Assembly: GCA_964510125.1 (NCBI GenBank) | Contig: CAZEAF010000001.1 | Coordinates: forward strand, 2,362 to 66,361 | Direction: 5' to 3' | DNA: 64,000 nucleotides | Origin: an uncultured Coriobacteriaceae bacterium | GTDB lineage: Bacteria; Actinomycetota; Coriobacteriia; Coriobacteriales; UMGS124 | In this document: one piece after another, positions 34,129 through 57,433 of the stretch | Layout of the letters: every line of letters starts with the position of its first letter | Position numbering within the stretch: position 1 is the stretch's first letter | The notes under the pieces: generated by a model | What the model was told of the DNA's origin: nothing | What the model saw: only the letters and a program-made list of their open reading frames with translations | Databases searched by the model: none | Made by a program: the position numbers and the translations under genes

Positions 34129-37100
34129 GTGGCTCAGCAAAAGCGCAGCTCGACACCACAGAAGAAGAGTAAGGCCAAAAGCGCCCAGACAAAGGCCGCC
34201 GAGCCTGCCCGCCGCGCATCGGCTGCCAAGAGGACCGTGGCCAGCCGCGCCGCATCCGCAGGCGGCCGCACCACTCAGCGCCGGCCGACCACAGCCAGGC
34301 AGGCCCCGGCCCCCGCACCGGCCATGTCCCAGGCCCCCGCTCCCTATGTTGAGGCCAGCGGCAGCCGCACCCGCCACGACATCGCCGGCATCGTCATCGG
34401 CGTCGTGGGCGTGGCCCTGCTCATAGCAGTCCTCACGCCGACGACGGGTGTCTTGACCATGGGCGTCTCGGGCCTGCTGCATCGGCTGCTGGGCCTGGGG
34501 GCCCTGCTGGTGCCCCTTGCCCTCATCGTCTGGGCCATTACCTTCTTTGTGCCGACCAACCGGGTCATGCCCGGCAGGGTCGCCTGTGGCCTGGGCCTCA
34601 TAGCCTTGGGCGTCATCGCCTTGCTGGGCATCACGGCAGAGGGCGCTGTGGCAGACCCCTCCCTCCTCTTTACCCCTGCGCTCCTGGTGAGCCGGGGCGG
34701 CTATGTAGGCAACGGGCTCGCCTGGGTCCTGCTGAGCCTGACGGGCGAGGTCGTGGGTGTCGTCGTGCTCGTGGGCCTTCTGATTGCCGGCCTGGTCGTG
34801 CTGGGCTTCTCCATGACCGAGGTCATCCAGCAGGCCTCTCTGCGCCTGCGCGAGCGCCGGGAGTTCGCCCGTCGCCAGAAGCAGGAGAGGGCCGCCCAGC
34901 TGGCCCGCGAGGCCGACCTCGACCTCTTACGCGCCCAGGGTGACATGCCCGAGGACTACGCCCCCACAGCCCTCTTCGACCCCGACCAACCCCTCGGCGA
35001 TCAGGGCCAATACCCAGAGGCGCCGCTGGACGGCGTGCCCACCAGCGTGCTGGACCGCTCGCGCACGGGCCAGCGCGCCTCGACTGTGCGCACCTTCGGC
35101 TGCGGAGACTACCCCGACGTCAACGGGAACGGGGCCCCGGTCGCGCCCGCCTTCGCCGGCGATGCTCCCGCAACGACCTATCTGCAGCAGGCTGACATCC
35201 CCGCCACCACCTATCTGCAACAGGCCGGCATCCCCGAGGATGTCCTCAAGGGGGTGCCTACCTCGGTCCTCAAGCGGGCCCAGGGCCGCGGCGCCTCCCT
35301 GACCCGCCAGTACCTTGACGACCAAAACGGGCCCGCGCTTGCCCCGGCCGCCTCCCCGGACGAGACCACCTTCCTGCAGCCTGCCATGGCTTTCGGGGAG
35401 GTTCCCGAGGATTTGGACGAGGAGGCCTTTCCCGGTTTGGCCCAGAGTCTGGGCGGGACCCCCCAGGCCCCTTTGCGCCGCGGTATCGACACAGCCTTTA
35501 CCCGCGAGGATGCCGGATCCAAGGCCTTCCGTCGGGAGCGTGTCCGCGACCAGCGCCGGGCCGAGTCTGCCTCTCGCAACTGGTGGGAGGGGACCGACCA
35601 GCCCCAGGCTGACATCGACGAGAGGGACGTGGCCTTTGCCGATGCCCGCCTGGATGTGCCGGTCCCGGGCATCATCGCCGGAATCCATCATGTTGAGGCT
35701 GAGGTTGAGCCTGAACCCGGCTTTGACCCTGAGCCTGAATCTGAGCCTGAGGCCCCAGCCGAGCAGACCACTCCCTTTCCCAGCTTGGCAGGGGAGGGGC
35801 GGGAGGTCTGGCGGGAGGCTGCATCCGCGGACCCAGAGCCTGACCAGGGGCTCGCCGAAGAGGAAGACGTGCAGGACTGGGACCCTGAGGCCAGCCCCTG
35901 CGTCGCCGACATGACGCCTCCTTGGGAGAGCCTGCCCGACCAGGCCGAGAAGGCTGACCAGACCCGAGCGGACTCGGCCAAGAAGGCTCGCACGCCCTCG
36001 ACCGAGACGACCCGTCTCACCTCAGCGGACAGGGCGCCACAAAAGGGCGCGACCGACTTTGCGGGCGTGTCAGGCGCCGCGGCATCCGCCCGACCCGCCG
36101 CACCTTCCAGCGACTTCCAGCTCCCCGATCCGGCTTTGCTGCGTCACACCACCCACGGCCTGAAAAAGAGCCAGGCCGAGCTGGACGAGATTGCCCACAT
36201 GGGTGAGCGGCTGGCCGACGTGCTCACCGAGTTCAAGGTGCCCGGCGAGGTCAAGGGATGGATCGAGGGGCCCACCTGCACAACCTATGAGATTAAGCCA
36301 GGCCAGGGGGTCCGCGTCAACCGCTTCACCGCGCTCGAGGAGGACATCGCACGCTCCCTGGCCCAGGAGAGCGTCCGCATCTACACGCCGGTCCACGGGA
36401 CCTCCTACATCGGCATCGAGGTGCCCAACCAGACCAGGCAGACGGTCCTCTTCGGCGACATCATCGCCTGCGTGACCGGCGGGCCGCTGGACTTTGCCGT
36501 GGGCCTGGATGCCAACGGCAAACCGGTCCACACCGACTTGGCCACCCTGCCCCACCTCCTCATCGCGGGTACCACGGGCTCGGGCAAGTCCGTCATGGTC
36601 AACTCCATCATCTGCAGCTTGCTCATGCGCAACACACCAGACGACGTCCGCCTCATCATGGTCGATCCCAAACAGGTCGAGCTCACGGGCTACAACGGCA
36701 TACCCCACCTGGTCATGCCCGTTGTGACCGACCCTCATCAGGCCTCGGCCGCCCTTCAGTGGGCGGTCACCGAGATGACCAGGCGCTTCAAGGTCTTTTC
36801 CAATGTTGGCGTGCGCGACATCATCTCCTACAACCGGAACCTGGAAGACCCGCAGGTCGTAGCCCAGACAGGGCTCAAGCACCTGCCCTATCTGGTCGTC
36901 ATCATCGACGAGCTGACCGACCTCATGATGGTGGCTAAGAAGGACGTCGAAGCCTCCATCACCCGCATAGCCCAGCTTGGCCGTGCCGCCGGCGTGCACA
37001 TAGTGACCGCGACTCAGCGACCCTCTGCCGACGTTGTGACCGGCCTCATCAAGGCCAACATCTCGAACAGAATGGCACTCAAGGTTGCCTCTGGCATCGA

Positions 37101-37635
37101 CTCCAAGGTCATCCTGGACCAGACCGGTGCCGAAAAGCTCCTGGGCCACGGCGACATGCTCTTCCTACAGACCCGATGGGGGAGCAAGCCCCGCCGCATC
37201 CAAGGCTGCTACCTGTCGGACCCCGAGATTGCCAACATCGTGAGCCACCTCAAGACCCAGGCATCGGCTGCTTCCGCCGAGGACCTGGGAATGGCGCCCA
37301 TGGGCGACGCCCGCCAGCTCACCATGGACACCCGAGGCCTGGACGCCGGCGGCTCCGACTACGCTGACTCCGGGGAGGTCACCGCCGTCAACGACGACGA
37401 CCCGCTCGTGATGAGGGCCGCCCAGCTCGTGGTCGAGAACCAGCTGGGTTCCACCTCTATGATCCAACGCCGGCTCAAGCTGGGCTATGCCCGTGCCGGC
37501 CGCGTCATGGACATGCTCGAGGAGCTCGGGGTCGTGGGGCCGGCCCGCAGCTCAAAGCCGCGCGACGTGCTCATCCAAGATCTCGACGAGCTCTCTGCCT
37601 TGTTCGGGACCGAGTTTACCGAAGGTGATGTGTGA
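34129..37635 (+). CDS. ftsK: DNA translocase FtsK (very long repetitive linker)
   Basis: N-terminal TM helices, a linker of about 500 aa, motor domain GTTGSGKSV...DELTDLMM, and a C-terminal gamma wHTH domain. The exact start is uncertain. Confidence 0.92.
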   Translation: MAQQKRSSTPQKKSKAKSAQTKAAEPARRASAAKRTVASRAASAGGRTTQRRPTTARQAPAPAPAMSQAPAPYVEASGSRTRHDIAGIVIGVVGVALLIAVLTPTTGVLTMGVSGLLHRLLGLGALLVPLALIVWAITFFVPTNRVMPGRVACGLGLIALGVIALLGITAEGAVADPSLLFTPALLVSRGGYVGNGLAWVLLSLTGEVVGVVVLVGLLIAGLVVLGFSMTEVIQQASLRLRERREFARRQKQERAAQLAREADLDLLRAQGDMPEDYAPTALFDPDQPLGDQGQYPEAPLDGVPTSVLDRSRTGQRASTVRTFGCGDYPDVNGNGAPVAPAFAGDAPATTYLQQADIPATTYLQQAGIPEDVLKGVPTSVLKRAQGRGASLTRQYLDDQNGPALAPAASPDETTFLQPAMAFGEVPEDLDEEAFPGLAQSLGGTPQAPLRRGIDTAFTREDAGSKAFRRERVRDQRRAESASRNWWEGTDQPQADIDERDVAFADARLDVPVPGIIAGIHHVEAEVEPEPGFDPEPESEPEAPAEQTTPFPSLAGEGREVWREAASADPEPDQGLAEEEDVQDWDPEASPCVADMTPPWESLPDQAEKADQTRADSAKKARTPSTETTRLTSADRAPQKGATDFAGVSGAAASARPAAPSSDFQLPDPALLRHTTHGLKKSQAELDEIAHMGERLADVLTEFKVPGEVKGWIEGPTCTTYEIKPGQGVRVNRFTALEEDIARSLAQESVRIYTPVHGTSYIGIEVPNQTRQTVLFGDIIACVTGGPLDFAVGLDANGKPVHTDLATLPHLLIAGTTGSGKSVMVNSIICSLLMRNTPDDVRLIMVDPKQVELTGYNGIPHLVMPVVTDPHQASAALQWAVTEMTRRFKVFSNVGVRDIISYNRNLEDPQVVAQTGLKHLPYLVVIIDELTDLMMVAKKDVEASITRIAQLGRAAGVHIVTATQRPSADVVTGLIKANISNRMALKVASGIDSKVILDQTGAEKLLGHGDMLFLQTRWGSKPRRIQGCYLSDPEIANIVSHLKTQASAASAEDLGMAPMGDARQLTMDTRGLDAGGSDYADSGEVTAVNDDDPLVMRAAQLVVENQLGSTSMIQRRLKLGYARAGRVMDMLEELGVVGPARSSKPRDVLIQDLDELSALFGTEFTEGDV
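35167..35232 (+). repeat. 2 x 33-bp in-frame tandem repeat (PATTYLQQA[D/G]I) in the FtsK linker
   Basis: Units 35167-35199 and 35200-35232 differ at 5 nt, 4 of them synonymous. The flanking GVPTSVL(D/K)R motif is also duplicated. Confidence 0.9.
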
Positions 37636-43137: not shown

Positions 43138-43895
43138 TGGCCAGTCCCAAGGACGTCGAGCTGGTCCGCAGGCAGCTAAGCGACCTTTTGGCCCGGCAGG
43201 AGGAACGCCGGGCCAAAAGGACGCGCACAACTCCTCCCGTCTACCTGGCGGGAGGGATTGCCCCCCAAAAGACAAGCTCGCACCAGGGCGCCTCAATCAG
43301 CTGGGTCCGGGTGGACGAGCAGACGCAGCGAGGGGAGATACCCGTCCCCTGCGCCGTGGCCAAGGCCTTTGGTGACCAGCGCGGCTTCGACTCCCTGGGG
43401 GAGCTTCACGACTGCATAACCACTGTGACCGAGGACTGCCTGCGCAAACGCCTGACATCCCTGCTCAACGTGCGCGACTACGCCCCCAGCGAAATCCGGG
43501 GGAAGCTCTCGGCCGACGGCTATGAGGCCCGGGACATCGAGAAGGCCATCGAGCGGGCCAAGTCCTGCGCCCTGCTGGACGAGAGCCGCTACGGAGCCTC
43601 CTTTGTCCGAGCCCACGTCCGCAAAGGCTGGGGCAGGGGCCGTATAGAGCGGGAGCTGCGCCAACGGGGCATAGACCCCCGGTCCATCGAGGGCTACCCC
43701 GACCGCTTTTTTGAGGATGACGAAATCGACCGGGCCCGCCAGGCACTGGCCACCAAGCGGGTCTCGGAGCCCAACCGCGAGGCCAAGCTCGCGCGCTTCC
43801 TGCTGAGTCGGGGATTTTCCCAGGATGTCGCCATCCGGGCAGCTCGCGACCGTATGGTACAGGACCGCTCACAGGCTCTCGGGGAACAGATGTGA
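43134..43895 (+). CDS. recX: recombination regulator RecX
   Basis: Overlaps the recA stop (ATGATG). Repeated three-helix modules ([15 protein letters not shown]..., [11 protein letters not shown]..., ARFLLSRGF). Confidence 0.82.
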
Positions 43896-43973
43896 AGAAA
43901 CGACCCCAATCCAAAAACCGGGATTTTTTCCTTGCACCGGCTTTGGCGCAATGATAATGTTCTCACCTGTTGA

Positions 43974-44050
<77 letters not shown>

Positions 44051-44060
44051 CGACATGATG

Positions 44061-44098
44061 AGAGGTCACGGGGCTCCCTGGTCCTGTGGCCTCTTTTC
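44061..44098 (+). terminator. candidate terminator after tRNA-Pro
   Basis: Imperfect hairpin AGAGGTCAC...GTGGCCTCT followed by TTTT. Confidence 0.4.
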
Positions 44099-44188
44099 GT
44101 TTCCGCGGCTTTTGTCCCACGGACGACGGGGCCAGCGGGTAGGATGCTGTAAGGAACAAGAGACGAGAGACGCTAGGGGAGGGCAAGT

Positions 44189-44848
44189 ATGGCGCGCGAG
44201 CTTGACGTGGACAAATCAGGGCATCAGCCTGGCACGCCGGAGAACCCCCTGCATACCGTCCTCACCCTCCCGAACCTCGTCACCCTCTGCCGCCTGATAC
44301 TCACGATTTGCTTCCTCTTCATGTATCCCCATGAGGAATACCGGGTGCCCGCCATCGTCATCTTCATCATCGCGGCCACAACCGACTGGATTGACGGCCA
44401 GATGGCCCGCCGGCTCCACCAGGTGAGTGTCTTTGGGAAGCGCTTCGACCCCGTCATGGACCGGGTCCTCATCTTCTCAGGCGTCTTGGCCCTCTACTTG
44501 GCTGGCCGCATCCCCACTTTCGTTGCCGTCTTCCTCATCATCCGAGACGTCTACTTGGCGATTGGTGGCGCCGTCCTCAAGGTCTTCACGGGCCACATCA
44601 TCGACGTGGCCTATATCGGCAAGGCCGCGACCCTCATCATCATGAGCGGCTTTGCCATCCTGCTCTTCAACTTCTTCCCCGTGCCCGGCCTGGGCCTGAT
44701 TGAGTCGGCCCAGCTACCTGGTTGGGGCGCCCAGCCCGTGAGCCTGGGCATGTGGGCAGTCTACGTGGGATGTGTCCTGTCCTTCCTTACCGCCTGCGTC
44801 TACACGGCACGTGGCATCCGGGCCCTGCGCGCCAACCGGACCCACTAG
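44189..44848 (+). CDS. second CDP-alcohol phosphatidyltransferase family protein (specificity unknown)
   Basis: DWIDGQMARRLHQVSVFGKRFDPVMDRV fits D-x2-DG-x2-AR-x8-G-x3-D-x3-D. Polytopic. GGGGAGGG upstream. Confidence 0.78.
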   Translation: MARELDVDKSGHQPGTPENPLHTVLTLPNLVTLCRLILTICFLFMYPHEEYRVPAIVIFIIAATTDWIDGQMARRLHQVSVFGKRFDPVMDRVLIFSGVLALYLAGRIPTFVAVFLIIRDVYLAIGGAVLKVFTGHIIDVAYIGKAATLIIMSGFAILLFNFFPVPGLGLIESAQLPGWGAQPVSLGMWAVYVGCVLSFLTACVYTARGIRALRANRTH

Positions 44849-44872
44849 ACCGTCCTTGCAAAGGAGACGACC

Positions 44873-46042
44873 ATGAGAGCCCCCTCCAGCCTTTTCCTGC
44901 GCATCTTCGCGACTCTCGTGGGGTCCATGGCCTGCCTGGCGCTTGCGGCGGCCCCCCTTGCCGCGCAGGCTGAGACCCTTTCCCTTGCGCCTGACGAGGT
45001 CCCGGCGGTGTTCGCCGCAGGAGCGGTGGTATGCGACGAGGACGGCAACGTCCTGTGGGGTGTCAATGAGAATGTCTCGGTCCCCATGGCCTCAACGACC
45101 AAGGTCATGACGGCGGTGCTCGCCATCGAGAGCGGCCTATCCCTGGACACGACCTACACGGTCTCCGAGCTCGCGGCTGAAAACGAGAGCACCGTGGTCG
45201 GCTATGAGGCCGGCGAGGTCGTGACCCTAGGCGACATGCTCAAAATCATGATGGTCCTCTCGGCCGGTGACGCTGCCGTGGGCATTTCCGAGTGCGTCTC
45301 TGGCTCTCAGGAGGCCTTCATCGACCTGATGAACCAGAGGGCTCAGGAACTGGGACTGACGGGCACCCATTACTCGCGGCCCGACGGCTACATAGACGCC
45401 GACAACTACACCACGCCGGTCGACGAGGTGACTCTCGCCCGCTACGCCATGTCCCTGCCCCTCTTCCGCACCCTGGTGGGGTCCACCTCCGTCACCATCC
45501 CCGTGGGCGGCGTCACCAAGACCTACCACAACTCCGACCAGCTGCTCGATTACTATCCGGGCATGCAGGGCATCAAGACGGGCTTCACCTATGGGGCCGG
45601 CTACTGCTTTGTGGGCTGTGCCCAGCGTGGCGGGGTGACCATATACACCTGCGTGCTGGGGGACGAGGAGGAGGAGTACCGCGTGTCGGACACCATTGCC
45701 CTTCTGGACTGGGCCTTCGACCACTATTCCTCCACGACCGTCATCACCGACTCCGACCAGCTCAGCGCCTTTGGGGTCCTGACCTCGGGCGCCCTTTTCG
45801 GAAGATCCGTTCTGACCGCGCCTGTCTCCTCTGTGGGCCTGCGCGGTGCCGACGGCGAGGTCCAGGTGTCTACACAGTCCACCGAGGCCGAGCAGGTCTA
45901 CCCGGGCTCCGTCGTCGGCGTGATAGAGGCCGCCAGCGCCACCGGTTCCGTCGCTCGCGAGGTGCTGGCCTCCGAGGCCGACACCCCCACCCAGACCTTC
46001 GGCCCCTTTGTGTCTCAGCTCTTCTACGAGGGTTGCGACTAG
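44873..46042 (+). CDS. D-alanyl-D-alanine carboxypeptidase (S11 family, low-MW PBP)
   Basis: Signal peptide, SxxK motif ASTTKVMTA, and a SAGD (SxN-like) motif. Confidence 0.82.
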   Translation: MRAPSSLFLRIFATLVGSMACLALAAAPLAAQAETLSLAPDEVPAVFAAGAVVCDEDGNVLWGVNENVSVPMASTTKVMTAVLAIESGLSLDTTYTVSELAAENESTVVGYEAGEVVTLGDMLKIMMVLSAGDAAVGISECVSGSQEAFIDLMNQRAQELGLTGTHYSRPDGYIDADNYTTPVDEVTLARYAMSLPLFRTLVGSTSVTIPVGGVTKTYHNSDQLLDYYPGMQGIKTGFTYGAGYCFVGCAQRGGVTIYTCVLGDEEEEYRVSDTIALLDWAFDHYSSTTVITDSDQLSAFGVLTSGALFGRSVLTAPVSSVGLRGADGEVQVSTQSTEAEQVYPGSVVGVIEAASATGSVAREVLASEADTPTQTFGPFVSQLFYEGCD

Positions 46043-46197
46043 CGGCCGAACTGCAGGCTCAAGTCGCCCTTAAGACTTTTTGAAGACATGTCGTATTACC
46101 CTGATGGAGCGGTTGATACCAGGCCCCAGCACAGGATGGGGTAGTATTAACCTTAACGTGAATCTCAATATGCCATCCCAGGAAAGGAATCATATCC

Positions 46198-46602
46198 ATG
46201 GATGCCGCCGATAACAGCCGGTTCGACTCCGACCGCACACAGGCCTTTGTCCTCTCCAACCCCGACGCCACCATCCCCGGCATCTCCACCGCGACCCCCT
46301 CGGGCCTGGCCAGCCTGGTCATCGTGCGTGGCCCCCTCAGCGGCGAGCGCTTTGAGCTCGACACGACCGAGACCACCATCGGGCGCGACCCCTCCTGCGG
46401 GGTCTTCCTCAACGACCGCACGGTCTCCCGACACCATGCCCGCCTCACCATCCGCGACGGCTCGGCCATGATTGAGGACCTGGGCTCCCTTAACGGCACC
46501 TGGGTCGACGGTGCCATCATGTCCTCCGGCGCCCTCCACAATGGGTCGACCATCCAGATAGGTACCTTCAAGATGATCCTCAACATCCCGCAGGACAAGT
46601 AG
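46198..46602 (+). CDS. FHA domain protein (GarA/OdhI-like position)
   Basis: C-terminal FHA signature GRDPSCGVFLNDRTVSRHHARL...DLGSLNGTWV. Followed by a MerR gene, as in the garA-ftsR pairs of other Actinobacteria. Confidence 0.82.
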   Translation: MDAADNSRFDSDRTQAFVLSNPDATIPGISTATPSGLASLVIVRGPLSGERFELDTTETTIGRDPSCGVFLNDRTVSRHHARLTIRDGSAMIEDLGSLNGTWVDGAIMSSGALHNGSTIQIGTFKMILNIPQDK

Positions 46603-46608
46603 CCGACC

Positions 46609-47337
46609 ATGGCCGCATCCACCTACAACATCGGCAAGGTCGTCAAGAAGCTTGAGCCCACGCATCCCGGTCTCTCAATCTCCAAGGTGCGCTACTTGGA
46701 GTCAAAGGGCCTCGTCAACCCACAGCGCACCAAGAGCGGCTACCGGGTCTACACCGACGAGGACATCCGCCGGCTGGACGCGGTGCTCAAGCTCCAGGAG
46801 ACCTGCTTCTACCCCCTCCAGGTCATCAAGGACAAGCTCGACGCCGCCGACGGGGCGCCCTTGGAGGAGCTGTCCAGTCGTGAGGTGCAAGCGGCTGAGG
46901 AGGATATGATTGTCCACAGTCCCCACTTCCTTGATGACCTGCCCGCCCTCATTGGCATACCCATCAGCTTCGTGCGGCAGCTGTCCGAGGCGGGGATTGT
47001 CACCATCCAGCGGGGAAGGCACGGCCGCGAGTTCGTGGACGGACACGACGTCCCCACCATCCGGTCCGCCTTCGAGCTCAAGCGCTACGGGCTGGAGCCC
47101 CGCCTTTTGCGCCAGTATGTGCAGCAGGCCAACCGCGAGCTACCGACCTTCCGCCAGATTCTCTCGACTACCATGGGACGGCAGGGGACCTTGGACGACC
47201 CGCGCACCGTCGAGACCTTCGACACGACCCTGGCCAACCTCCTGGAGCTCACCGGCCGCATCCGCAACGACATCGTTCGTCAGTCCCTGCGCCGTGAGTT
47301 CAAACACCCCGAGGCCCAGTGCGCTCCGGTCGAGTAA
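46609..47337 (+). CDS. MerR-family transcriptional regulator (FtsR-like by position)
   Basis: N-terminal YNIGKVVKKLEPTHPGLSISKVRYLESKGLVNPQRTKSGYRVY is a MerR HTH. A second MerR-like repeat lies in the C-terminal half. Confidence 0.8.
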   Translation: MAASTYNIGKVVKKLEPTHPGLSISKVRYLESKGLVNPQRTKSGYRVYTDEDIRRLDAVLKLQETCFYPLQVIKDKLDAADGAPLEELSSREVQAAEEDMIVHSPHFLDDLPALIGIPISFVRQLSEAGIVTIQRGRHGREFVDGHDVPTIRSAFELKRYGLEPRLLRQYVQQANRELPTFRQILSTTMGRQGTLDDPRTVETFDTTLANLLELTGRIRNDIVRQSLRREFKHPEAQCAPVE

Positions 47338-47400
47338 GCATACGTTAACAATAACCGTGAAAGGCAAAGCGCCGCAGGCTGAGAGGGGAGGACGCCGCCC

Positions 47401-48543
47401 ATGAGGCAAGCTGATGAGACGTCCTACCCTTTGAGTAGGCGGGACTTTGTCTTTAGCACCGCCTCGGCCGGCACTGTTGTCCTGTGTCTCCTCCTGACAG
47501 GCATGGCTTTTCGCCGGCAGGCCCTTGCAGCCCCCACCCAGGCGCGCGGTGAGGAGGAGACGGCGGCCCTCACGGCGGCCCAACAGCAGTACGACGAGGC
47601 CAAGGACAAGCTCGAGACCATCGGCGCCCAGCTGGAGGACACTAAGTACCAGCGGGACCAGACAGCCGACGAGCTCAAGCAGCTGGGGGTTGACATCGAG
47701 GTCACCCAGAGTGGCATCGACGACAAGACCCGTGAGCTGGACCAGGCCCAGAACGCCTTGGCCGCCCTCATGCAGATTACCTACAAGTCGGGCCACACCT
47801 CCATGCTCGACATCTTCTTCTCATCCTCCAGTATCAACGACCTCGTGACCCGCACCTACTACGCAGCTAAGGTCCAGAACGCCCAGGTCTCCACCATCGA
47901 GGACATCCGGGTGCTCAAGAAGGAGCTCGAGGAGCGGCGGGCCACCCTGTCCTCCCAACAGGACGAGCAGAACAAGCTCCTGGTCCAGCTGGATGAGCAG
48001 GAGCAGCAGCTCAAGGCCAGCCAGGACGAGGCCAACCAGGTCCTAGCCCAGCTCTCAGTCGAGGTCCAGGAGCTCTTTGCTGCCCAGCAGACCGAGCTCC
48101 AGGCGGCCGCCCAGGCCCGCGCCTCTGCCCAGGCGGCTGCGGAGGGCGGGGAGGCACTCGGCGTGTACGCCCCCTCGAAGTCCCAGGGGTCCATCGTGGA
48201 GAACGCCTATGCCTGCCTGGGCATCCCTTACGTCTGGGGTGGCGATGACGAGAACTTTGCAGAGAAGGGCGGCTTTGACTGCTCGGGCTTCTGCCAGCAC
48301 TGCTACGCCCTGGAGGGCTGGGCGATAGGCCGCACCACCTGGGACCAAATCGACCAAATCAACGCCGCGGGCAACTGGAGGGACTCGCTGGACGACCTGC
48401 AGCAAGGCGATTTGATTTTCCCCAGGGACTCGCACGTGGGGATATATATTGGGAACTATCAGATGATTGACGCACCCTATCCGGGTATGTTCATCCAGGT
48501 TGACGATATCACCGATTTCCTGGGCGGCGGCTCCCCAATCTAA
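47401..48543 (+). CDS. secreted coiled-coil NlpC/P60 peptidoglycan endopeptidase (RipA/PcsB-like architecture)
   Basis: Tat-like signal SRRDFVFSTASAG, a Q/E/L-rich coiled coil of about 230 aa, and a C-terminal YVWGGDD...FDCSGF...H catalytic domain. Confidence 0.85.
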   Translation: MRQADETSYPLSRRDFVFSTASAGTVVLCLLLTGMAFRRQALAAPTQARGEEETAALTAAQQQYDEAKDKLETIGAQLEDTKYQRDQTADELKQLGVDIEVTQSGIDDKTRELDQAQNALAALMQITYKSGHTSMLDIFFSSSSINDLVTRTYYAAKVQNAQVSTIEDIRVLKKELEERRATLSSQQDEQNKLLVQLDEQEQQLKASQDEANQVLAQLSVEVQELFAAQQTELQAAAQARASAQAAAEGGEALGVYAPSKSQGSIVENAYACLGIPYVWGGDDENFAEKGGFDCSGFCQHCYALEGWAIGRTTWDQIDQINAAGNWRDSLDDLQQGDLIFPRDSHVGIYIGNYQMIDAPYPGMFIQVDDITDFLGGGSPI

Positions 48544-48569
48544 GGGAGGCCCCACGCTGGAAGGCGTTC

Positions 48570-49385
48570 TTGGAGGCGGTTTTGAAGAGATCTCAAGAGC
48601 TTGAAGGACCTGAAGCACATAAAGTCGACGCCATCTCCCAGAGAAAGCGCCGCCTGGTCGTCATCGTGGTTGCCGTGATTCTGCTTGCCATCGCAGTGGC
48701 CATCACCGTCGCTATCATGCCCTTCATGAAGCAGCTGGCGGTTGACGACGATTTCCAGGCCGACTTTGTGAAGTGGGTTTCCAGCCAGGGGGTCTTTGGC
48801 TTTTTGGTCCTGCTGACCTTGCAGATTCTCCAGATAGTGATTGCCTTTATCCCCGGCGAGATTGTTCAGGTCGTGGCAGGTGCCATGTACGGCACCTGGG
48901 GCGGGCTGGGTCTTTGCTTTTTGGGCTGCATCATCGCCAGCGCCGCCGTCTATGCCTTGGTTGCGCGCTTTGGACGGGACTTCGTCGTGACAGCGATAGG
49001 GGAGGAGAAGCTCGCCAAGTTCGACTTCCTCAATAGCTCTGAGAAGTTGGACACCATTGTGTTCGTCCTTTTCCTCATCCCCGGCATCCCCAAGGACGTC
49101 CTGACCTACATCGTCCCCCTGACCCCCATGCACATGAAGACCTTCCTGATTCTTTCCAACGTCGCCCGCATCCCCGGCATGATTGCGTCAACCTTGGTGG
49201 GCTCCAGCATCGTCGATACCAACTGGGTCGCCATCATCATCGTCTTCGCCATAGTCGCGGTCATCGGCGGCCTCGGCATCTGGAAGCACGACGCCATCAT
49301 GTCCTGGGCCAAGTCCCACAGCCACCATACGGGCGGCCACAATACTGGCGACAATGCGTCGTCTGACAAACACCATCGGCATTAG
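48570..49385 (+). CDS. TVP38/TMEM64 (DedA-related) family membrane protein
   Basis: Polytopic; FIPGEIVQVVAGAMYG and PGIPKDVLTYI motifs. The TTG start is uncertain. Confidence 0.7.
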   Translation: MEAVLKRSQELEGPEAHKVDAISQRKRRLVVIVVAVILLAIAVAITVAIMPFMKQLAVDDDFQADFVKWVSSQGVFGFLVLLTLQILQIVIAFIPGEIVQVVAGAMYGTWGGLGLCFLGCIIASAAVYALVARFGRDFVVTAIGEEKLAKFDFLNSSEKLDTIVFVLFLIPGIPKDVLTYIVPLTPMHMKTFLILSNVARIPGMIASTLVGSSIVDTNWVAIIIVFAIVAVIGGLGIWKHDAIMSWAKSHSHHTGGHNTGDNASSDKHHRH

Positions 49386-49489
49386 CAGGCAGGCCCGACA
49401 CCCACACGCTTCTGAATCCGCCCATGAGCATATCGGGCGGCCTTTGGCTTCCCGCACCGGCGCTGCCAGCGCTTTCTATGGTAATCCAA

Positions 49490-49517
49490 ATGTTACATAA
49501 GATATATTATCGGATTT
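49490..49517 (-). other. dif: candidate dif site (XerC/XerD chromosome-dimer resolution site), 11-6-11
   Basis: The minus strand reads AAATCCGATAA-TATATC-TTATGTAACAT. By hand alignment this is 21/28 identical to B. subtilis dif and 18/28 to E. coli dif, with the TTATGTAA XerD-arm core intact. It lies in the gap where gene orientation switches from plus to minus (convergent). Confidence 0.65.
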
Positions 49518-49559
49518 TTCTAGGGGAGTGTGAGTTACAGCGCAGACCATGGGCGACTC

Positions 49560-49582
49560 GCGGTAGGTCCCCTCCCTACCGC
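49560..49582. terminator. 8-bp stem hairpin downstream of dut (no U-tract)
   Basis: GCGGTAGG-tcccctc-CCTACCGC lies 33 nt beyond the dut stop. Confidence 0.3.
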
Positions 49583-49614
49583 TACCGGACAGCCTCATGC
49601 ATGCGCGGGCAGGC

Positions 49615-50079
49615 TCATGCTTGCGCCGACGACGCCACGCCTGTGGACCCAAAGCCATTGGCGCCACGGTCGGTCTGGTCGAGCTCCTCAACCTCGTGCA
49701 GGCGGACCGTGGGCACGGGCTGGATGACTAACTGGGCGATGCGGTCACCATGGTGGATTGCGATGGGTGTATGGGCGTCTGTGTTGATGAGGATGACTTT
49801 TAGCTCGCCCCGGTAATGGGAGTCTATGAGGCCGGGTGTGTTCACGATGGAAAGGCCACTTCGTATTGCTAGACCGCTACGGGGCTGCATGAAACCCGCA
49901 TAGCCGTCAGGCAGGCCAATGGCCATGCCGGTGGACACCAGGGCCCGCTCACCGGGCTGCAGGGTCAGGTCCTGGGCGCTCAGGATGTCCAGGCCAGCGT
50001 CACCCTCATAGGCATAGCTAGGCAGGGGGAGCGACTTGTCGAGCCTTTTGATGGTCACGTCTACGAACATCTGAGACAA
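49615..50079 (-). CDS. dut: dUTP diphosphatase
   Basis: GDAGLDI, RSGLA and [10 protein letters not shown] motifs. TTG start 5 nt after GGGGAGGG. Confidence 0.92.
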
Positions 50080-50100
50080 GGTGCCCTCCCCTATTCAATC

Positions 50101-50135
50101 ATTATAAATAATATTAATCAATCTATTAATATTAT
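50101..50135 (-). promoter_or_regulatory. dut promoter (-35 TTAATA 50124-50129, 17 nt, -10 TATAAT 50101-50106) overlapped by a perfect 11-6-11 inverted repeat
   Basis: Plus strand reads ATAATATTAAT(50108-50118)-caatct-ATTAATATTAT(50125-50135). It is embedded in a block of about 55 bp made almost only of A/T in a G+C-rich genome. The nrdR stop codon (50132-50134) lies inside it. Confidence 0.55.
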
Positions 50136-50599
50136 ATATCTGTATCTGACGATATGGATGCAAGCTCTTGGTAAAAGCCCTCGAGATCGCCAAAGTCTTT
50201 GTAGACCGAGGCAAAGCGCACATAGGCCACCTTGTCAAGCTTGCGCAGGTGCTCGAGGACCAGGTTGCCAAGCTGGCGGGAATCGACCTCGTTGATGAAG
50301 TGGTTGCGGAGTTCGGTCTCAATGTCATTGATGAGCTCGTTGAGCTTCTCGACCGAAATGTTGCGCTTGACCGTGGCGGTGACCAGGCTCTTGAGCAGCT
50401 TTTCCCGGTCGAAGGACTCGAGCGTGCCGTTCTTCTTGCGCACCTGGAGGGGATGCTCCTCACGGCGCTCGTAGGTCGTGAAGCGCTCCTTGCATTCGGG
50501 GTTGAGGCATTCGCGGCGTCGGCGCGTGGCATTGCCGGACTCAGCCGGGCGTGAGTCTATGACCTTTGACTCCGTATAGCCGCACTTGGGGCACCGCAT
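50132..50599 (-). CDS. nrdR: transcriptional repressor NrdR
   Basis: MRCPKCGYTESKVIDSRPAESGNATRRRRECLNPECKERFTTYE (zinc ribbon) plus an ATP-cone. GAGGAGG precedes ATG 50599. The ORF-track extension was trimmed. Confidence 0.94.
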   Translation of the reverse strand: MRCPKCGYTESKVIDSRPAESGNATRRRRECLNPECKERFTTYERREEHPLQVRKKNGTLESFDREKLLKSLVTATVKRNISVEKLNELINDIETELRNHFINEVDSRQLGNLVLEHLRKLDKVAYVRFASVYKDFGDLEGFYQELASISSDTDI

Positions 50600-50639
50600 G
50601 TATCCTCCTCGATGAATTTGGTTCGGGTACATGCGAAAG

Positions 50640-50660
50640 TTTACCTCACCTGTGAGTAAA
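50640..50660 (-). promoter_or_regulatory. imperfect inverted repeat upstream of nrdR
   Basis: Plus strand TTTACcTCAC-ct-GTGAGTAAA: 9-bp arms with one extra base. It lies about 40-60 nt upstream of the nrdR ATG. Confidence 0.3.
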
Positions 50661-50729
50661 TGAATTGTATGTTTTGCTCCCCTATCGCTAGCCTGGTTGT
50701 TGGCTATGCACATCTATGCCAAGCCTGGC

Positions 50730-51227
50730 TTAGCCGGCCGTGGGGACCAGGATGGTCTGACCGGGATAGATGGAGCTGGCCTCAAGACCGTTGAGGTCGG
50801 AGATGAGGCGGACGGCCTCATAGGTGCTGAGGTTGCTGACGGGGTTGCGGTCGGCAATGGACCAGAGGGTGTCGCCAGGCTGGACCGTGACGGGCGTGGA
50901 GGCATCGGAAGCCATGAGGGCCCGGTAGGTGGAAGTCTGGCCCACCATGGTCCAGGCCGAGACGGCGATGACGGCTGCGATGGCACTGGTCATGAGAAGA
51001 ACGAGGGCGCGGATCTGCCGGCGACGGGAAAGGGAGCGCCTCATTTGGTTGTGGCGGATAGAACGCTCGATCTGCCGGGACCTCGTAACGGCGCTGGGCT
51101 CGGACTCTGCAATCTGGTAAAGCCGGGCATGGTTGGGGTTGTAGTCATTGAAGAGGTTCTGGCCCACAAGACCGGCTGGTGCGTATGCGTGCTCAGTCTC
51201 AAAAGCGGCTATGCTGGTGGTATTCAT
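50730..51227 (-). CDS. LysM-domain membrane protein, candidate SOS cell-division inhibitor (YneA/ChiZ-like by architecture and position)
   Basis: Basic region, a single TM segment ALVLLMTSAIAAVIAVSAW, and a C-terminal LysM domain VTVQPGDTLWSIADR...IYPGQTILVP. Divergent from lexA and shares its SOS-box region. AGGAGG RBS. Confidence 0.75.
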   Translation of the reverse strand: MNTTSIAAFETEHAYAPAGLVGQNLFNDYNPNHARLYQIAESEPSAVTRSRQIERSIRHNQMRRSLSRRRQIRALVLLMTSAIAAVIAVSAWTMVGQTSTYRALMASDASTPVTVQPGDTLWSIADRNPVSNLSTYEAVRLISDLNGLEASSIYPGQTILVPTAG

Positions 51228-51292
51228 GTGGTCCTCCTATCCGTTTCTGTCTGCGACCGCATCATGGGCTAAGGTGGGGACAGAAACTCTTG

Positions 51293-51360
51293 GAACGTTC
51301 GTTCGGCGACCATGATAGCAGAACGAGTGTTCCGTGTGAAGGGTCTACGAACACCTGTTT
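51293..51360. promoter_or_regulatory. three LexA (Cheo-type) boxes in the lexA/LysM divergent region
   Basis: GAACGTTCGTTC (51293-51304), GAACGAGTGTTC (51321-51332) and GAACACCTGTTT (51349-51360). The spacing is 28 bp start to start. The third box overlaps the lexA -35. Confidence 0.75.
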
Positions 51361-51388
51361 GACATTCTTTTGAGGTGACATCTATACT
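51359..51388 (+). promoter_or_regulatory. lexA promoter (-35 TTGACA, 18 nt, -10 TATACT)
   Basis: Hexamers at 51359-51364 and 51383-51388. A GTTCGA half-site follows at 51391-51396. Confidence 0.55.
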
Positions 51389-51413
51389 GGTGTTCGACGA
51401 AAGGAGCCTCAGG

Positions 51414-52058
51414 ATGACCACTTCCGATGCCAAGCTCACTAAGCGCCAGCAACAGATTTACGATTACATATGCCAGACAGTGTTGGATAAGGGCTATCCC
51501 CCGAGCGTTCGTGAGATTGCCTCGGCCGTCGGCCTCAAGAGCCCCTCGACGGTCCACATGCACCTGCAGGTGCTGGAGGACAAGGGCTATATCCAGCGCG
51601 ACCAGTCCAAGCCCCGTGCGCTGGAGATTAGGGATGACCCGCGTGCGGCGAGCGCTGCCGACGGCGTCGAGCCGGTCGGCTCGGGAATCATTACGGTGCC
51701 CATCGTTGGCCGGGTGGCGGCCGGCCAACCCATCTTGGCTGAGCAGAATATAGAGGGGTCTATGGCCCTGCCCCAGTCTATCGTGGGAGATGCCGCCTCC
51801 TTCGTCCTGCGCGTCAAGGGCGAGTCAATGATTCAGGCGGGCATCTTCGACGGGGACTATGTGATTGTCCGCGAGCAACAGGACGCGGTGAACGGTCAGA
51901 TTGTGGTTGCCATGGTCGATGACGGGGCCACGGTCAAGACCTTCTATCGGGAACAGGACCGCATCCGGCTGCAGCCCGAGAACCCCGCCATGACCCCCAT
52001 CTACGCCGAGAACCCGGTCATCCTAGGCAGGGTCATCGGTCTGATCCGAGCCATGTAG
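51414..52058 (+). CDS. lexA: LexA repressor
   Basis: LTKRQQQIYDYI wHTH domain and an S24 peptidase domain, VKGESM...K dyad. GAAAGGAG precedes ATG 51414. Confidence 0.95.
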   Translation: MTTSDAKLTKRQQQIYDYICQTVLDKGYPPSVREIASAVGLKSPSTVHMHLQVLEDKGYIQRDQSKPRALEIRDDPRAASAADGVEPVGSGIITVPIVGRVAAGQPILAEQNIEGSMALPQSIVGDAASFVLRVKGESMIQAGIFDGDYVIVREQQDAVNGQIVVAMVDDGATVKTFYREQDRIRLQPENPAMTPIYAENPVILGRVIGLIRAM

Positions 52059-53375
52059 GTCGTCCGCGGCGGGGCGGTCGGGCCGGTCTCCCCTTTCCTG
52101 GAAAGGCTCGAGCCTGGCTGCCAGCAGCGGGGGCGCAATCACTGTCATGCGGGTGCCCGACTGGTCGAAGGACTGGGTCAAGATGGTCCCCTGCTCGTGG
52201 CAGCGCTTGACCAAGTCTCCCCTGTCATAGGGTATGAGCACCTGCAGGGTCGTGTCGCGGGACCGGGCGATGCGGGAGATTGCCTCCACCAGGCTCTCCA
52301 GACCGTCCCCAGCCAGGGCCGATACGGTCGCCGCATCAGGGTGGCGGTGGCGCAGGGCCTGCAGGTCCTCGTCTTCCAGACAATCAATCTTGTTGTAGAC
52401 CACGAGCTGGGCGATGCTGCTGGCGCCAATCTCCTCCAGGACGTCATCAACGGCTCCCAGCTGCTGGCTCACATGGGGGTCGGAGGCGTCGGCTATCTTT
52501 AGGATGAGGTCGGCTCCCTTGACCTCGGCTAGGGTGCTTTTGAAGGCCTCCACCAAGCCGGTTGGCAGCTTTTGGATGAAGCCGACCGTGTCGGTGAGGA
52601 CGGCCTGCCTGCCGCCGGGAAGCCCCAAAAGGCGGGTCGTGGGGTCCAGGGTGGCAAAGAGCAGGTCCTGGGTGAGCACCTGGGCATCGGTGAGCTTGTT
52701 GAGCAGGGTGGATTTGCCGGCATTGGTGTAGCCAGCCAGGGCCACCCGGAACATCTGGGACTCATAGCGCTGCTTGTGTTGGACCTCGCGGTTGGATTCT
52801 ACCTTGGCCAGCTCCCGGCGCAGGGTTGACATGCGGTTGCGGATGAGGCGGCGGTCGACCTCGAGTTGGCTTTCGCCTTGGCCGAAGCGCGAGCCGATGC
52901 CGCCGCGGGTCTTGTCCTTGGCCAGGTGCGCCCACATACCGCGCAGGCGGGGATAGAGGTACTTGAGCTGGGCCATCTGTACCTGGAGCTTGCCCTCGCG
53001 CGTCTGGGCGTGCTGGCCGAAGATGTCGAGGATGAGGGCTGTGCGGTCGATGACCTTGAAGTCCAGGCCGACGGCGCGCTCGATGTTGGACTGCTGGGAG
53101 GGCGTGAGCTCGTCGTCGAAGATGACGACGTCGGCCTTGAGGGTTTCGGCCATCTCCTTGAGCTCGGAGAGCTTGCCGGACCCCAGGAAGGTCTTGGCGA
53201 AGGGGCGGTCGAGCCGCTGGGTCACCCTGCCCACTGTGTCGGCCCCGTCGGTCCAGGCCAGCCGTTCCAGCTCGTCCAGAGACTCATCGACAGTCCACTC
53301 GCCCGGGCCCAAATCGACGCCAACTAGGACGCACCTCTCGCGCTCGGGCGCGACAACAAAGGGCTCCTCAGCCAT
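52023..53375 (-). CDS. hflX: GTPase HflX
   Basis: HflX N-terminal domain and G domain GYTNAGKSTLLNKLT...DTVGF. The 3' end overlaps the lexA 3' end by 36 nt. Confidence 0.92.
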   Translation of the reverse strand: MAEEPFVVAPERERCVLVGVDLGPGEWTVDESLDELERLAWTDGADTVGRVTQRLDRPFAKTFLGSGKLSELKEMAETLKADVVIFDDELTPSQQSNIERAVGLDFKVIDRTALILDIFGQHAQTREGKLQVQMAQLKYLYPRLRGMWAHLAKDKTRGGIGSRFGQGESQLEVDRRLIRNRMSTLRRELAKVESNREVQHKQRYESQMFRVALAGYTNAGKSTLLNKLTDAQVLTQDLLFATLDPTTRLLGLPGGRQAVLTDTVGFIQKLPTGLVEAFKSTLAEVKGADLILKIADASDPHVSQQLGAVDDVLEEIGASSIAQLVVYNKIDCLEDEDLQALRHRHPDAATVSALAGDGLESLVEAISRIARSRDTTLQVLIPYDRGDLVKRCHEQGTILTQSFDQSGTRMTVIAPPLLAARLEPFQERGDRPDRPAADDLHGSDQTDDPA

Positions 53376-54456
53376 GGACCTGCTCCTTCGTCAGACGTTC
53401 GATGACCGTGGTGAGCAGCTGGGACGTGGTCGCATGGGTCGCGTCGAGCCACTCGACACGGGGGTCTTTCCTGAACCAAGTCATCTGTCGTTTGGCATAG
53501 CGGCGCGACCGCATCTTGATCAAGTCGACAGCGGCAGACATAACCTCGCCCTCGTCGGCGCCCTCCCCCACGGCACGGAGCGCCTCTATGACTTCCTTGT
53601 ACCCGATGGCCTGACGCGAGGTCAAGGAGTCGGCCAGGCCCTGCTGGACCAGGCCTCGCACCTCGTCAACCAGGCCCAGTCCCATCATCTGGTCAACCCG
53701 GGCGTCAATGCGCCGGTAGAGGGGGTCCCGGTCCCAGGCGAGGCCGAAGACCCGGGTGGGATGGCGGTTTATGCGGACCTGGAGCCCCTCGTGTTTGACG
53801 GCGTAGGTCGTCCCTTGCTCCAGCAGCTCAAAGGCCCTGACCACCCGCCGCACGTTGTTGGGGTGGATGATGGCCGCGCTGGCTGGGTCTTTCTGGGCCA
53901 AGAGTTTGTGGATACCCTGGGGCCCCAGCTCCTGAGCGAGCTCCTGATAGTGCTCGCGGACAGGGTTGTCGACCTGCTCTCCGGCAGCGAAGGCCATGTC
54001 CTCCAGGGCGGCGCGCACGTAGAGGCCCGTCCCCCCGCAGACGACGGCGGTCTTGCCTTCCCCAATGAGCCCATCGATGGCCTGGTGGGCGAGCTCGGCA
54101 TACTCGGCTGCCGAGAAGGTCTGGCCGGGATCGGCTATATCCACACAGAGTAGGGGCACCGGTCTCTCCCCCACCGGGGTCTTGGCCGTGCCAATGTCCA
54201 TGCCCCGGTAGACCTGCATGGAGTCGGCCGAGACCACGGAGGTGCCCAGTTCTAGGGCCAGGGCGTCGGCCAAGGAAGACTTGCCGGAGGCCGTGGGACC
54301 CACGATAGCAACGACATCGCAGACAGAAACAGAGGTTGCATGAGCTGGGGTTGCGGGGACCACGGACCCTGGGACCGCGGGGCCGAGGTCATGGCAATCA
54401 AAGGCCGCGGGGCCGGGGACCGCTGGGCTGGGCGTGGCAGGGCTAGGTGTCGACAA
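53368..54456 (-). CDS. miaA: tRNA dimethylallyltransferase with P/A-rich N-terminal extension
   Basis: GPTASGKSSLA P-loop and MQVYRGMDIGTAKP. Confidence 0.92.
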   Translation of the reverse strand: MSTPSPATPSPAVPGPAAFDCHDLGPAVPGSVVPATPAHATSVSVCDVVAIVGPTASGKSSLADALALELGTSVVSADSMQVYRGMDIGTAKTPVGERPVPLLCVDIADPGQTFSAAEYAELAHQAIDGLIGEGKTAVVCGGTGLYVRAALEDMAFAAGEQVDNPVREHYQELAQELGPQGIHKLLAQKDPASAAIIHPNNVRRVVRAFELLEQGTTYAVKHEGLQVRINRHPTRVFGLAWDRDPLYRRIDARVDQMMGLGLVDEVRGLVQQGLADSLTSRQAIGYKEVIEALRAVGEGADEGEVMSAAVDLIKMRSRRYAKRQMTWFRKDPRVEWLDATHATTSQLLTTVIERLTKEQVHG

Positions 54457-55858
54457 GCGTGCCCTCCAGGTACCAGGTGCGGGCCAGGTCTATGTGGGCG
54501 CCCATGATGCGACCGACGTACTCATGACCAGCGTGGCCTGCGGGGATGGGCACGTGGACCGTCTGGTTCTTGGGGCTGCGACCCGAGAGCATTGCGGCGT
54601 TTCGCTTGGAAACGCCCTCCAAAAGGACCGGAACGGTCTGGTTGAGCTCCTTTTGGTTCTGCTCGTAGGCCGTGGTCTGGATGACCTCCACCAGCCGGTC
54701 AAAGCGGTCCTGGATGACCTCGCGGGGCGTGTCGTCTGCCATCTTTGCCGCAGGCGTCCCCTCGCGCTTGGAGTAGATGAAGGTGAACGCCTGGCTGTAG
54801 CGGACCTGCTCGGCCAAGGACAGGGTCTGGAGGAAGTCCTCCTCGGTCTCGCCTGGAAAGCCGACGATGATGTCAGTGGACAGGGCGATGTCGGGCATGG
54901 CGGTGCGAATGCGGTCGACGAGGGCCAGGTACTGCTCGCGCGTGTAGGTGCGGTTCATGGCCTTGAGGATGCGTGAGGAGCCCGACTGCACGGCCAGGTG
55001 GAGGTTGGGCATGACGGCTGGCGTCTGCGCCATGGCCGCAATGGTCTGGTCGGAGAGGTCCTTGGGATGGCTGGACGTGAAGCGGACCCGGTCGATGCCG
55101 GTGTTGCCCACGGCCTGCAGGAGCTCGGCGAAGCGGGGCGAACCGTAGAGATCGCGTCCGTAGGAGTTGACGTTTTGGCCCAGCAGCGTGACCTCTTTGA
55201 CGTTTGCGTCGGCCAGGCGGCGGACCTCGTCGACAATCTCGTCGAATTCCCGGCTGCGCTCACGCCCGCGCACGTAGGGGACGATGCAGTAGGTGCAGAA
55301 GTTGTTGCAGCCAAAGGTGATGGGCACCCAGGCGTGGAACTCCTCGTCGCGGCGGGAAGGCAGGTCGGTCGAGGCCTCGCCCAGCACATCGGCCTCGAGC
55401 AGAGCGCTGATATGGTCCTGGCCGGCTAGGGCTCGCTCGATGAGCTGGGGGACGCGGGACAGGGTGTGGGTGCCGAAGACGACGTCCACGTTGGGCAGGT
55501 GGGTGAAGAGGGCCTCGCCGTCGCGCTGGCCGATGCAGCCGCCCACGCAGACGACGCGCCTGTCCGACCCCGGCCGGGGCGGCAGGTTCTTCATGGTGGC
55601 CACCTGGCCGTAGAGACGGGTGTCGGCGGCCTCGCGCACACAGCAGGTGAGGAAGACCACGATGTCAGCGTCCTCGTAGCGCTCGACAGGCAAGGATCCG
55701 CAGGTCTCGAGCATGCCGCGGACGCGCTCGGCGTCGTGGAAGTTCATCTGGCAGCCAAAGGCGCGCACGACGTACGTCGTACCGGCCAGGGCCCGGGTGT
55801 CTGTGCCGGCTGCGGAGGCCACGGGCTGGTCAGTCGAGGCGTTCGTCATATTCGGCAT
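54443..55858 (-). CDS. miaB: tRNA-2-methylthio-N6-dimethylallyladenosine synthase
   Basis: FGCQMNFHD, radical-SAM CNNFCTYCIVP, and a TRAM domain. The start (55858 or 55849) overlaps the spoVS 3' end. Confidence 0.92.
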   Translation of the reverse strand: MPNMTNASTDQPVASAAGTDTRALAGTTYVVRAFGCQMNFHDAERVRGMLETCGSLPVERYEDADIVVFLTCCVREAADTRLYGQVATMKNLPPRPGSDRRVVCVGGCIGQRDGEALFTHLPNVDVVFGTHTLSRVPQLIERALAGQDHISALLEADVLGEASTDLPSRRDEEFHAWVPITFGCNNFCTYCIVPYVRGRERSREFDEIVDEVRRLADANVKEVTLLGQNVNSYGRDLYGSPRFAELLQAVGNTGIDRVRFTSSHPKDLSDQTIAAMAQTPAVMPNLHLAVQSGSSRILKAMNRTYTREQYLALVDRIRTAMPDIALSTDIIVGFPGETEEDFLQTLSLAEQVRYSQAFTFIYSKREGTPAAKMADDTPREVIQDRFDRLVEVIQTTAYEQNQKELNQTVPVLLEGVSKRNAAMLSGRSPKNQTVHVPIPAGHAGHEYVGRIMGAHIDLARTWYLEGTLVDT

Positions 55859-56159
55859 CCTTGCGTTCGCTGACGAGCATGGGCGTGAACTCATCGATGG
55901 ACCGGGGATGGACGGTGAGGCGGATGGCAGTGCGCTTCTCGCCGTCAATCACGATGTCCTGGAAGACCGGCGAGCACGACACGTCGATGCCGGTAGGAAT
56001 GAGAAAGCCGCGGGCGATGGCGATGGCCTTGATGGACTGGTTGACCGCGCCTGCGCCCACCGCCTGCATCTCGACGGGGACACCATCCTTAATCATGCCT
56101 GCTATGGCGCCAGCCACGCTGGCGGGCGAAGACTTGCTAGAGACCTTGAGGTAGTCCAT
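55830..56159 (-). CDS. spoVS: SpoVS-family protein with C-terminal extension of about 23 aa
   Basis: MDYLKVSSKSSPASVAGAIAGMIKDGVPVEMQAVGAGAVNQSIKAIAIARGFL...DGEKRTAIRL is nearly colinear with B. subtilis SpoVS. Confidence 0.9.
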   Translation of the reverse strand: MDYLKVSSKSSPASVAGAIAGMIKDGVPVEMQAVGAGAVNQSIKAIAIARGFLIPTGIDVSCSPVFQDIVIDGEKRTAIRLTVHPRSIDEFTPMLVSERKDAEYDERLD

Positions 56160-56267
56160 GTGAGCTCCGGTCAGGCTACGTATCAGATGCGATTGAATAC
56201 AGTTACCGCATAGTACATTAAGAACGTGCATATGGTGCGGGCTGGACATTTCTGCGAGGGGCGCCCA

Positions 56268-57422: not shown

Positions 57423-57433
57423 AAGGCCCTCCC

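Follow-up and report, generated by a model that had tools for sequence, protein, structure and literature searches.

A predicted dif site where two convergent gene runs meet beside dut in an uncultured member of the Coriobacteriia

The locus and its 28-bp element

The DNA analysed here is a stretch of 64,000 nucleotides from an uncultured Coriobacteriaceae bacterium (contig CAZEAF010000001.1; the whole stretch is called the window below), in which two long runs of genes point at each other across a gap of 229 bp (49386-49614). The gap is bounded by the stop codons of a convergent gene pair, an open reading frame (ORF) for a VTT/TVP38-domain membrane protein on the plus strand and dut on the minus strand, and it holds at 49490-49517 a 28-mer that reads AAATCCGATAATATATCTTATGTAACAT on the minus strand or, divided into arms and centre, AAATCCGATAA-TATATC-TTATGTAACAT. 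Judging from its sequence, we consider this 28-mer very probably a true dif site, lying at the junction of the replichores (terminus region) of an Atopobiaceae/Olsenella-like Coriobacteriia chromosome. The features of the site and its two neighbours are as follows.

49490..49517, minus strand: predicted dif site, 28 bp (profile score, conservation, single copy in the window)
49507..49517, minus strand: left arm AAATCCGATAA, site positions 1-11; presumed XerC-binding arm, by analogy with the dif sites of E. coli and B. subtilis
49501..49506, minus strand: central 6 bp TATATC, site positions 12-17; presumed strand-exchange region
49490..49500, minus strand: right arm TTATGTAACAT, site positions 18-28; presumed XerD-binding arm
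48570..49385, plus strand: VTT/TVP38-domain membrane protein (Pfam VTT_dom, E = 4e-18), the last gene of the plus run, ending 104 bp from the site
49615..50079, minus strand: dut, dUTPase (Pfam dUTPase, E = 4e-36), the last gene of the minus run, ending 97 bp from the site

A preliminary description of the locus, made from the letters of the DNA, had proposed a dif-like XerC/XerD site here. Its sequence and coordinates are exact, as seen by reading the strand directly, and the 28-mer is the sole match in the window at three or fewer mismatches (0 expected). The AT-rich stretch that it had singled out in the gap was also recovered (79% A+T in the 28-mer vs. 34% in the remainder of the gap), and the 28-mer has exactly the 11-6-11 layout of a Xer site, with the inner ATAA/TTAT dyad present as described.

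Rfam was searched with the gap and no RNA family matched. A role of the site as a terminator or a promoter was rejected or unsupported. At the dut end of the gap, a tandem direct repeat of 20 nt with 85% identity between its units (CGGACAGCCTCATGCATGCG and CGGGCAGGCTCATGCTTGCG; 49586-49625) straddles the dut stop codon and looks like a small duplication of the dut 3' end. An ORF of 130 aa on the plus strand (49424-49816) crosses both the gap and the site; it had no Pfam match, was left uncalled by the codon-usage model and is almost certainly spurious.

Match to known dif sequences

A position weight matrix (the actinobacterial profile) was built from 29 in-register published predictions of actinobacterial dif sites (PMC3025954, supplement 2), none of them from Coriobacteriia, and 300 second-order Markov simulations of the window served as the chance control. 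The actinobacterial profile gave 30.0 bits for the site, 10.0 bits for the next unrelated match in the window and 23.7 bits for the best of the 300 simulated windows. The sites from which the profile was trained score higher (minimum 32.8, median 42.9 bits), because the class-specific central region of the site differs from theirs. With a Coriobacteriia profile (48 distinct sites, the window excluded), the site scores 41 bits.

The consensus of the 29 published predictions is nnnGCCGATAATnnACATTATGTCAAGT, and it contains the CCGATAA that the preliminary description had given as actinobacterial. The dif sequences of Actinobacteria resemble the site in their length of 28 bp and 11-6-11 layout, in the inner left arm CCGATAA and a right arm starting with TTATGT, and in their intergenic position at a switch of strand bias. 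The dif seed of Frankia alni (CACGCCGATAATGCACATTATGTCAAGT) is identical to the site at 18 of the 28 positions, and individual published actinobacterial sites at 18-20. The most evident difference concerns the centre, which is T-R-Y-A-T-C followed by TTATG in Coriobacteriia but T-n-n-A-C-A followed by TTATG in other Actinobacteria. Smaller differences are found at position 6 (usually T in Coriobacteriia, C in the window) and at position 24 (A, T or C in the class, mostly C in other Actinobacteria). Kono et al. 2011 (PMC3025954) predicted dif in 66 of 66 actinobacterial genomes; no member of the Coriobacteriia was found in their list, and a paper on Xer/dif or on skew in Coriobacteriia was not found in the literature searched.

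The identity counts made earlier by hand against two well-known sites were reproduced with the reference sequences in PMC3025954. The dif of B. subtilis (ACTTCCTAGAATATATATTATGTAAACT) is identical to the site at 21 of 28 positions, including five of the six in the centre (TATATC here vs. TATATA) and the right-arm segment TTATGTAA, which is the same in both; its inner left arm, however, is CCTAGAA where the site has CCGATAA, and the host here belongs to the high-G+C Actinobacteria and not to the Firmicutes. The dif of E. coli (GGTGCGCATAATGTATATTATGTTAAAT) is identical at 18 of 28 positions and has the same architecture, and in this bacterium, too, FtsK has a gamma domain.

Conservation in the Coriobacteriia

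To compare the site among relatives, 80 Coriobacteriia loci (20 kb each) were fetched around dut homologues. A pattern search found a single site per locus in 60 of the 80 and variant sites in two further loci. In all 60 loci the site is intergenic and shares the strand of dut, at a distance of 0.2-5.6 kb downstream of it, and in each of them (60/60) the actinobacterial profile ranks this homologous site first, so that, counting the variants, a same-orientation intergenic site downstream of dut is present in 60-62 of the 80 loci. Most of the loci without a site have short flanks downstream of dut. In L060, a locus from the complete chromosome of a metagenome-assembled genome (MAG; OY968780.1), there is a site where one would be expected (11084-11111), of which the left arm and the centre are intact and the right arm is degenerate (ACGCCTGATAATACATCTTACGTCCTGC, 25 bits).

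The information content is 1.38 bits per column within the 28-mer vs. 0.13-0.15 in the 40-nt flanks, and the edges of conservation are sharp at site positions 1 and 28. The class consensus is A-n-n-n-C-Y-GATAAT-R-Y-A-T-C-TTATGT-n-A-A-G-T. Among the 48 distinct sites, positions 7-12 and 18-22 are invariant or nearly so (GATAA of the inner left arm and TTATG of the right arm are invariant), the centre follows T-R-Y-A-T-C across the class, and positions 2-6 of the outer left arm are variable. The right arm has the consensus TTATGTnAAGT with positions 25-28 largely conserved (28 nearly invariant, 26-27 in ~75-80%). A variable outer left arm beside a conserved outer right arm is the asymmetry typical of the XerC and XerD arms in known dif sites.

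In L086, a metagenome contig of a related species, all 28 bases are kept, although overall DNA identity is ~65% and the gap is rich in indels; the synteny nrdR-dut-site-VTT is kept as well. Only one metagenome contig turned up with the exact 28-mer, and its synteny is the same; a contig of the same species (L088, 99.5% identical) also has the site at 28/28. The exact 11-6-11 layout, the match to a phylum-wide profile, the 60-62 loci, the sharp edges of the 28-mer and its complete preservation in L086 thus agree with what the preliminary description had claimed, a dif-like XerC/XerD site.

Directly 3' of the right arm, AGAGA occurs in many loci of the Atopobiaceae and Collinsella type (L004, L016, L027, L030, L033, L039, L047, L055, L057, L063, L065 and L068), whereas the window has TTGGA; it may be an extension of the conserved site in a subclade.

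Convergent genes and inversions around the site

The genes were identified with Pfam scans and with a simple gene caller based on codon usage. From 950 to 49385 they are on the plus strand except for rpsT (16949-17215) and the gene for an Rce1/CPBP protease (29385-30389), and from 49615 to the end of the window they are on the minus strand except for lexA (51375-52058), so that 52 of the 55 called genes point toward the site. The flip of gene orientation at the gap is as it had been described before, down to the same exceptions. The relatives show the same convergence: to the left of the site the plus strand carries 85% of the coding bases, to its right the minus strand carries 92%, and the two genes next to it converge in 48 of the 60 loci. 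Throughout the Coriobacteriia, dut is the conserved neighbour of the site; the best matches of the window's dut in a species-level genome collection are from Atopobiaceae, Collinsella and Olsenella, with at most 73% identity.

Synteny mapping gave the usual gene order in Coriobacteriia as recX, rny, HATPase, miaB, miaA, hflX, lexA (on the opposite, minus strand), nrdR and dut on one side, all except lexA pointing at dif, and MerR, FHA, in brackets PBP, CDP-OH transferase, Zn-ribbon and NIF3 on the other side, pointing back at it. Compared with L087, L022, L058, L002 and others, the outer flanks of the window (43134-60066) are swapped, which corresponds to an inversion spanning the site, with breakpoints between recX and rny and between CDP-OH and Zn-ribbon (~9.5 kb and 5.6 kb away from the site). 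In L002 there is another, smaller inversion that adjoins the site with one end. None of these arrangements abolishes the convergence of the genes on the site, and none alters the orientation of the site relative to dut. Inversions symmetric about the axis between origin and terminus are predicted by a replication-linked organisation of the chromosome. The claim that the locus belongs to the terminus is therefore supported by a conserved convergence (85% and 92% of coding bases; 48/60 gene pairs), by inversions that span the site and keep the co-orientation of the genes, and by the absence of origin features (see below). A weaker suggestion is that the class-wide linkage of dut and dif, together with the dif-centred inversions, may reflect a terminus neighbourhood of unusual stability in the Coriobacteriia.

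Weighing the evidence

Several observations, set out in this paragraph and the next, weigh against a dif site at the terminus. Neither xerC nor xerD was found anywhere in the 64 kb of the window, nor in the 80 relatives up to 10 kb from the site (Pfam scans of the window, and tblastn with an E. coli XerD sequence against the window and the loci; nothing was below E = 0.3). Four relatives (L008, L029, L031 and L040) have no site despite a full 10 kb downstream of dut, and the dut-dif linkage is therefore not universal. Positions 26-27, in the presumed XerD arm, do not follow the class consensus: they are CA in the window (arm end ...AACAT), L086 and L088 but AG (...AAAGT) in 36-39 of the 48 distinct relatives; the CA variant may be a lineage-specific change co-varying with XerD. 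In general, dif is to be expected near, and not necessarily at, the place where replication forks meet, as PMC3025954 cautions.

The composition of the DNA adds further points of this kind. The preliminary description had proposed that the extremum of the cumulative GC skew should fall at about 49.5 kb. The position is as proposed, since the cumulative (G-C) curve has its extremum at 49695, at a distance of 180 bp. The sign is opposite to the canonical one of a terminus: the extremum is a minimum (skew negative left, positive right), the canonical signature of an origin. In genes pointing at the site the GC skew is +0.22, -0.15 and -0.23 at codon positions 1, 2 and 3, and the G+C content of third positions (GC3) is 84%; the coding strand is net C-rich because of these C-rich third codon positions. 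Since they are combined with a gene co-orientation of ~95%, the curve mirrors gene orientation and reaches its minimum at the site. The skew is thus explained by codon composition, adds nothing beyond gene orientation and is no independent evidence of a terminus. The intergenic skew toward the site (+0.025 over 5.4 kb) is weakly canonical and without statistical weight, and a separation of replication skew from coding skew has too little power with only three lagging-oriented genes in the window and a difference of at most 0.02 in the pooled relatives. A polarity of FtsK-orienting polar sequences (KOPS) of the E. coli type, which had also been suggested for this point, was not detectable in the window, as GGGNAGGG is unskewed (18 toward the site, 22 away). 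Skewed words do exist (GAGAAGGG, 6 toward and 1 away; GGGGAGGG, 9 and 1), but this signal is confounded by the ~95% co-orientation of the genes, and all strongly skewed 6-8-mers in the window look codon-driven, that is, due to codon usage on co-oriented genes.

Four other explanations of the 28-mer and its surroundings were considered. The site could be a real dif and the strand switch a local feature, with the forks meeting elsewhere on the chromosome. According to PMC3025954, dif is correlated with but not identical to the shift-points of skew, and some actinobacterial genomes have large offsets; such offsets favour this explanation, as does the fact that codon usage explains the skew signal of the window. 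In two complete or near-complete contigs of relatives the site is found at ~0.53 of 2.39 Mb (~22%; OZ007031.1, L058) and at ~1.67 of 2.20 Mb (~75%; L087), positions measured along the record and not from oriC. We nevertheless regard this as improbable, as convergence at the site is conserved class-wide, the inversions are centred on the site as expected for an ori-ter axis, and almost all genes in the 49 kb to one side of it and the 14 kb to the other are oriented toward it. That the site instead marks the replication origin has next to no probability in our view. The skew minimum at 49695, negative on the left and positive on the right, is what such a reading would start from, but its sign comes from the third codon positions (GC3 skew -0.23 at 84% GC3), with an intergenic skew of +0.025 toward the site, and in most of the related loci the skew at the homologous site is canonical in sign. 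The genes converge on the site instead of diverging from it, neither dnaA nor dnaN was found in the window by Pfam scans, and near-matches to the DnaA box TTATCCACA are at chance level (5 in 64 kb vs. 4.2 expected, none in the gap), and an oriC identity was rejected on these grounds.

The 28-mer might also be the operator or binding site of an unrelated DNA-binding protein, for example one regulating dut or the VTT gene, and resemble dif because it is an AT-rich imperfect palindrome. It is indeed an intergenic imperfect palindrome, and a weak promoter-like match (CTCACA-17-GATAAT, minus strand) overlaps it. This is very unlikely, however, for a site that both flanking genes face with their 3' ends and whose neighbours and distance from dut (0.2-5.6 kb) vary in the relatives while the 28-mer and its orientation are fixed; its length, asymmetry and base pattern, moreover, match the dif profiles of other Actinobacteria. 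Finally, the site could be the attachment site of an integrative mobile element exploiting Xer (IMEX) and not the primary chromosomal dif. Three contigs of a viral collection carry the same core CGATAATATATCTTATGTAA: at L083:10632-10659, on the minus strand of L084 and at L085:7379-7406 there is a Firmicute-like dif (ACTTTCGATAATATATCTTATGTAAACT) that has this 20-nt core in common with the site, and these dif-like sites may belong to Xer-exploiting elements or to host flanks. The contigs, however, have 30-46% G+C and are unrelated to this genome. The window has no second dif-like copy (no other score exceeds 10 bits), neither an integrase nor a mobile-element gene is present around the site, and its housekeeping context is conserved across the class; we give an attachment site hardly any credence.

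The sign of the skew may have a meaning beyond this locus. The inverted sign is also found in the high-G+C relatives L004, L015, L030 and L054, and the canonical sign at the homologous site in 22 other Coriobacteriia loci. Possibly, although we lean somewhat against it, the usual rule of composition is reversed genome-wide in this high-G+C, Atopobiaceae-like lineage: with more than 90% of the genes co-oriented with replication and third positions strongly favouring C at the expense of G, the leading strand would be rich in C and the cumulative skew would reach its minimum at the terminus. In that case, tools that rely on skew would take the origin for the terminus and vice versa, which would leave dif as the one dependable mark of the terminus in the sequence. 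A naive skew-based origin finder would in any event mislabel this locus.

Proposed function of the site and its significance

If the 28-mer is dif, a partner expected from other bacteria is encoded 12 kb away, within the conserved block dapB-dapA-rnj-ftsK-rimO-pgsA/cinA-recA-recX.

34129..37635, plus strand: ftsK, DNA translocase of alpha, motor and gamma domains, 1168 aa (Pfam FtsK_SpoIIIE 6e-61, FtsK_alpha 8e-25, FtsK_gamma 3e-24, the last covering model positions 2-62 of 63)

This FtsK would be expected to activate Xer recombination, and in that sense to be functionally linked to the site. The mechanism proposed here follows the models of E. coli, B. subtilis and mycobacteria. If the number of crossovers is odd, a chromosome dimer would remain after replication, and its two dif copies would be synapsed at the closing septum. 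A XerC-type enzyme would bind AAATCCGATAA and a XerD-type enzyme TTATGTAACAT, both tyrosine recombinases acting on 11-bp arms, with the assignment of protein to arm taken from the same model systems. FtsK bound at the septum would translocate toward dif, its gamma domain would activate the XerD-type partner, and strand exchange across TATATC would then give two monomers. Recombination at the site would depend on FtsK, and the replication forks presumably meet nearby. In B. subtilis, dif is acted on by CodV/RipX. We know of no Tus/Ter-type trap in Actinobacteria.

As no recombinase gene is near the site, the cognate enzymes are assumed. Dimer resolution at the terminus is also the role of two single-recombinase systems, XerS/difSL of streptococci and XerH/difH of Helicobacter, in which the recombinase gene lies beside an atypical site, whereas the neighbours here are the VTT gene and dut and the 28-mer is canonical. 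No similarity to tyrosine recombinases was found in the window or in the 80 loci, which fits unlinked enzymes of the XerC/XerD type and argues against a XerS or XerH module.

The element and its logic are textbook, and no new mechanism is revealed. The most notable by-products of the analysis are the class-specific consensus, the class-wide linkage of dut and dif with its dif-centred inversions, and the inverted sign of the skew. The site, which is invisible to gene callers, provides a landmark of the replichore junction in a poorly studied and mostly uncultured class of gut and oral actinobacteria. It helps to orient and check MAG assemblies and to interpret rearrangements such as the inversions around it, and it helps to avoid a mis-assignment of origin and terminus where the sign of the GC skew is "wrong". 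The class-specific dif consensus can be used for genome annotation and for Xer-based tools of marker excision.

Other features of the window

Left of the site, the housekeeping genes comprise pyr genes, comEC, holA, lepA, dnaJ, pnp, dapBA, rnj, ftsK, rimO, pgsA-cinA, recA and recX; right of it they comprise dut, nrdR, lexA, hflX, miaA, miaB and rny. There are three paralogues of MiaB/RimO-family radical-SAM methylthiotransferases (23975-25444, 39279-40643 and 54443-55948) and two adjacent paralogues of DnaJ (21609-22772 and 22805-23962). The comEC gene (13419-15860, plus strand) has an AT skew of -0.23, as expected for a T-rich gene of a hydrophobic membrane protein.

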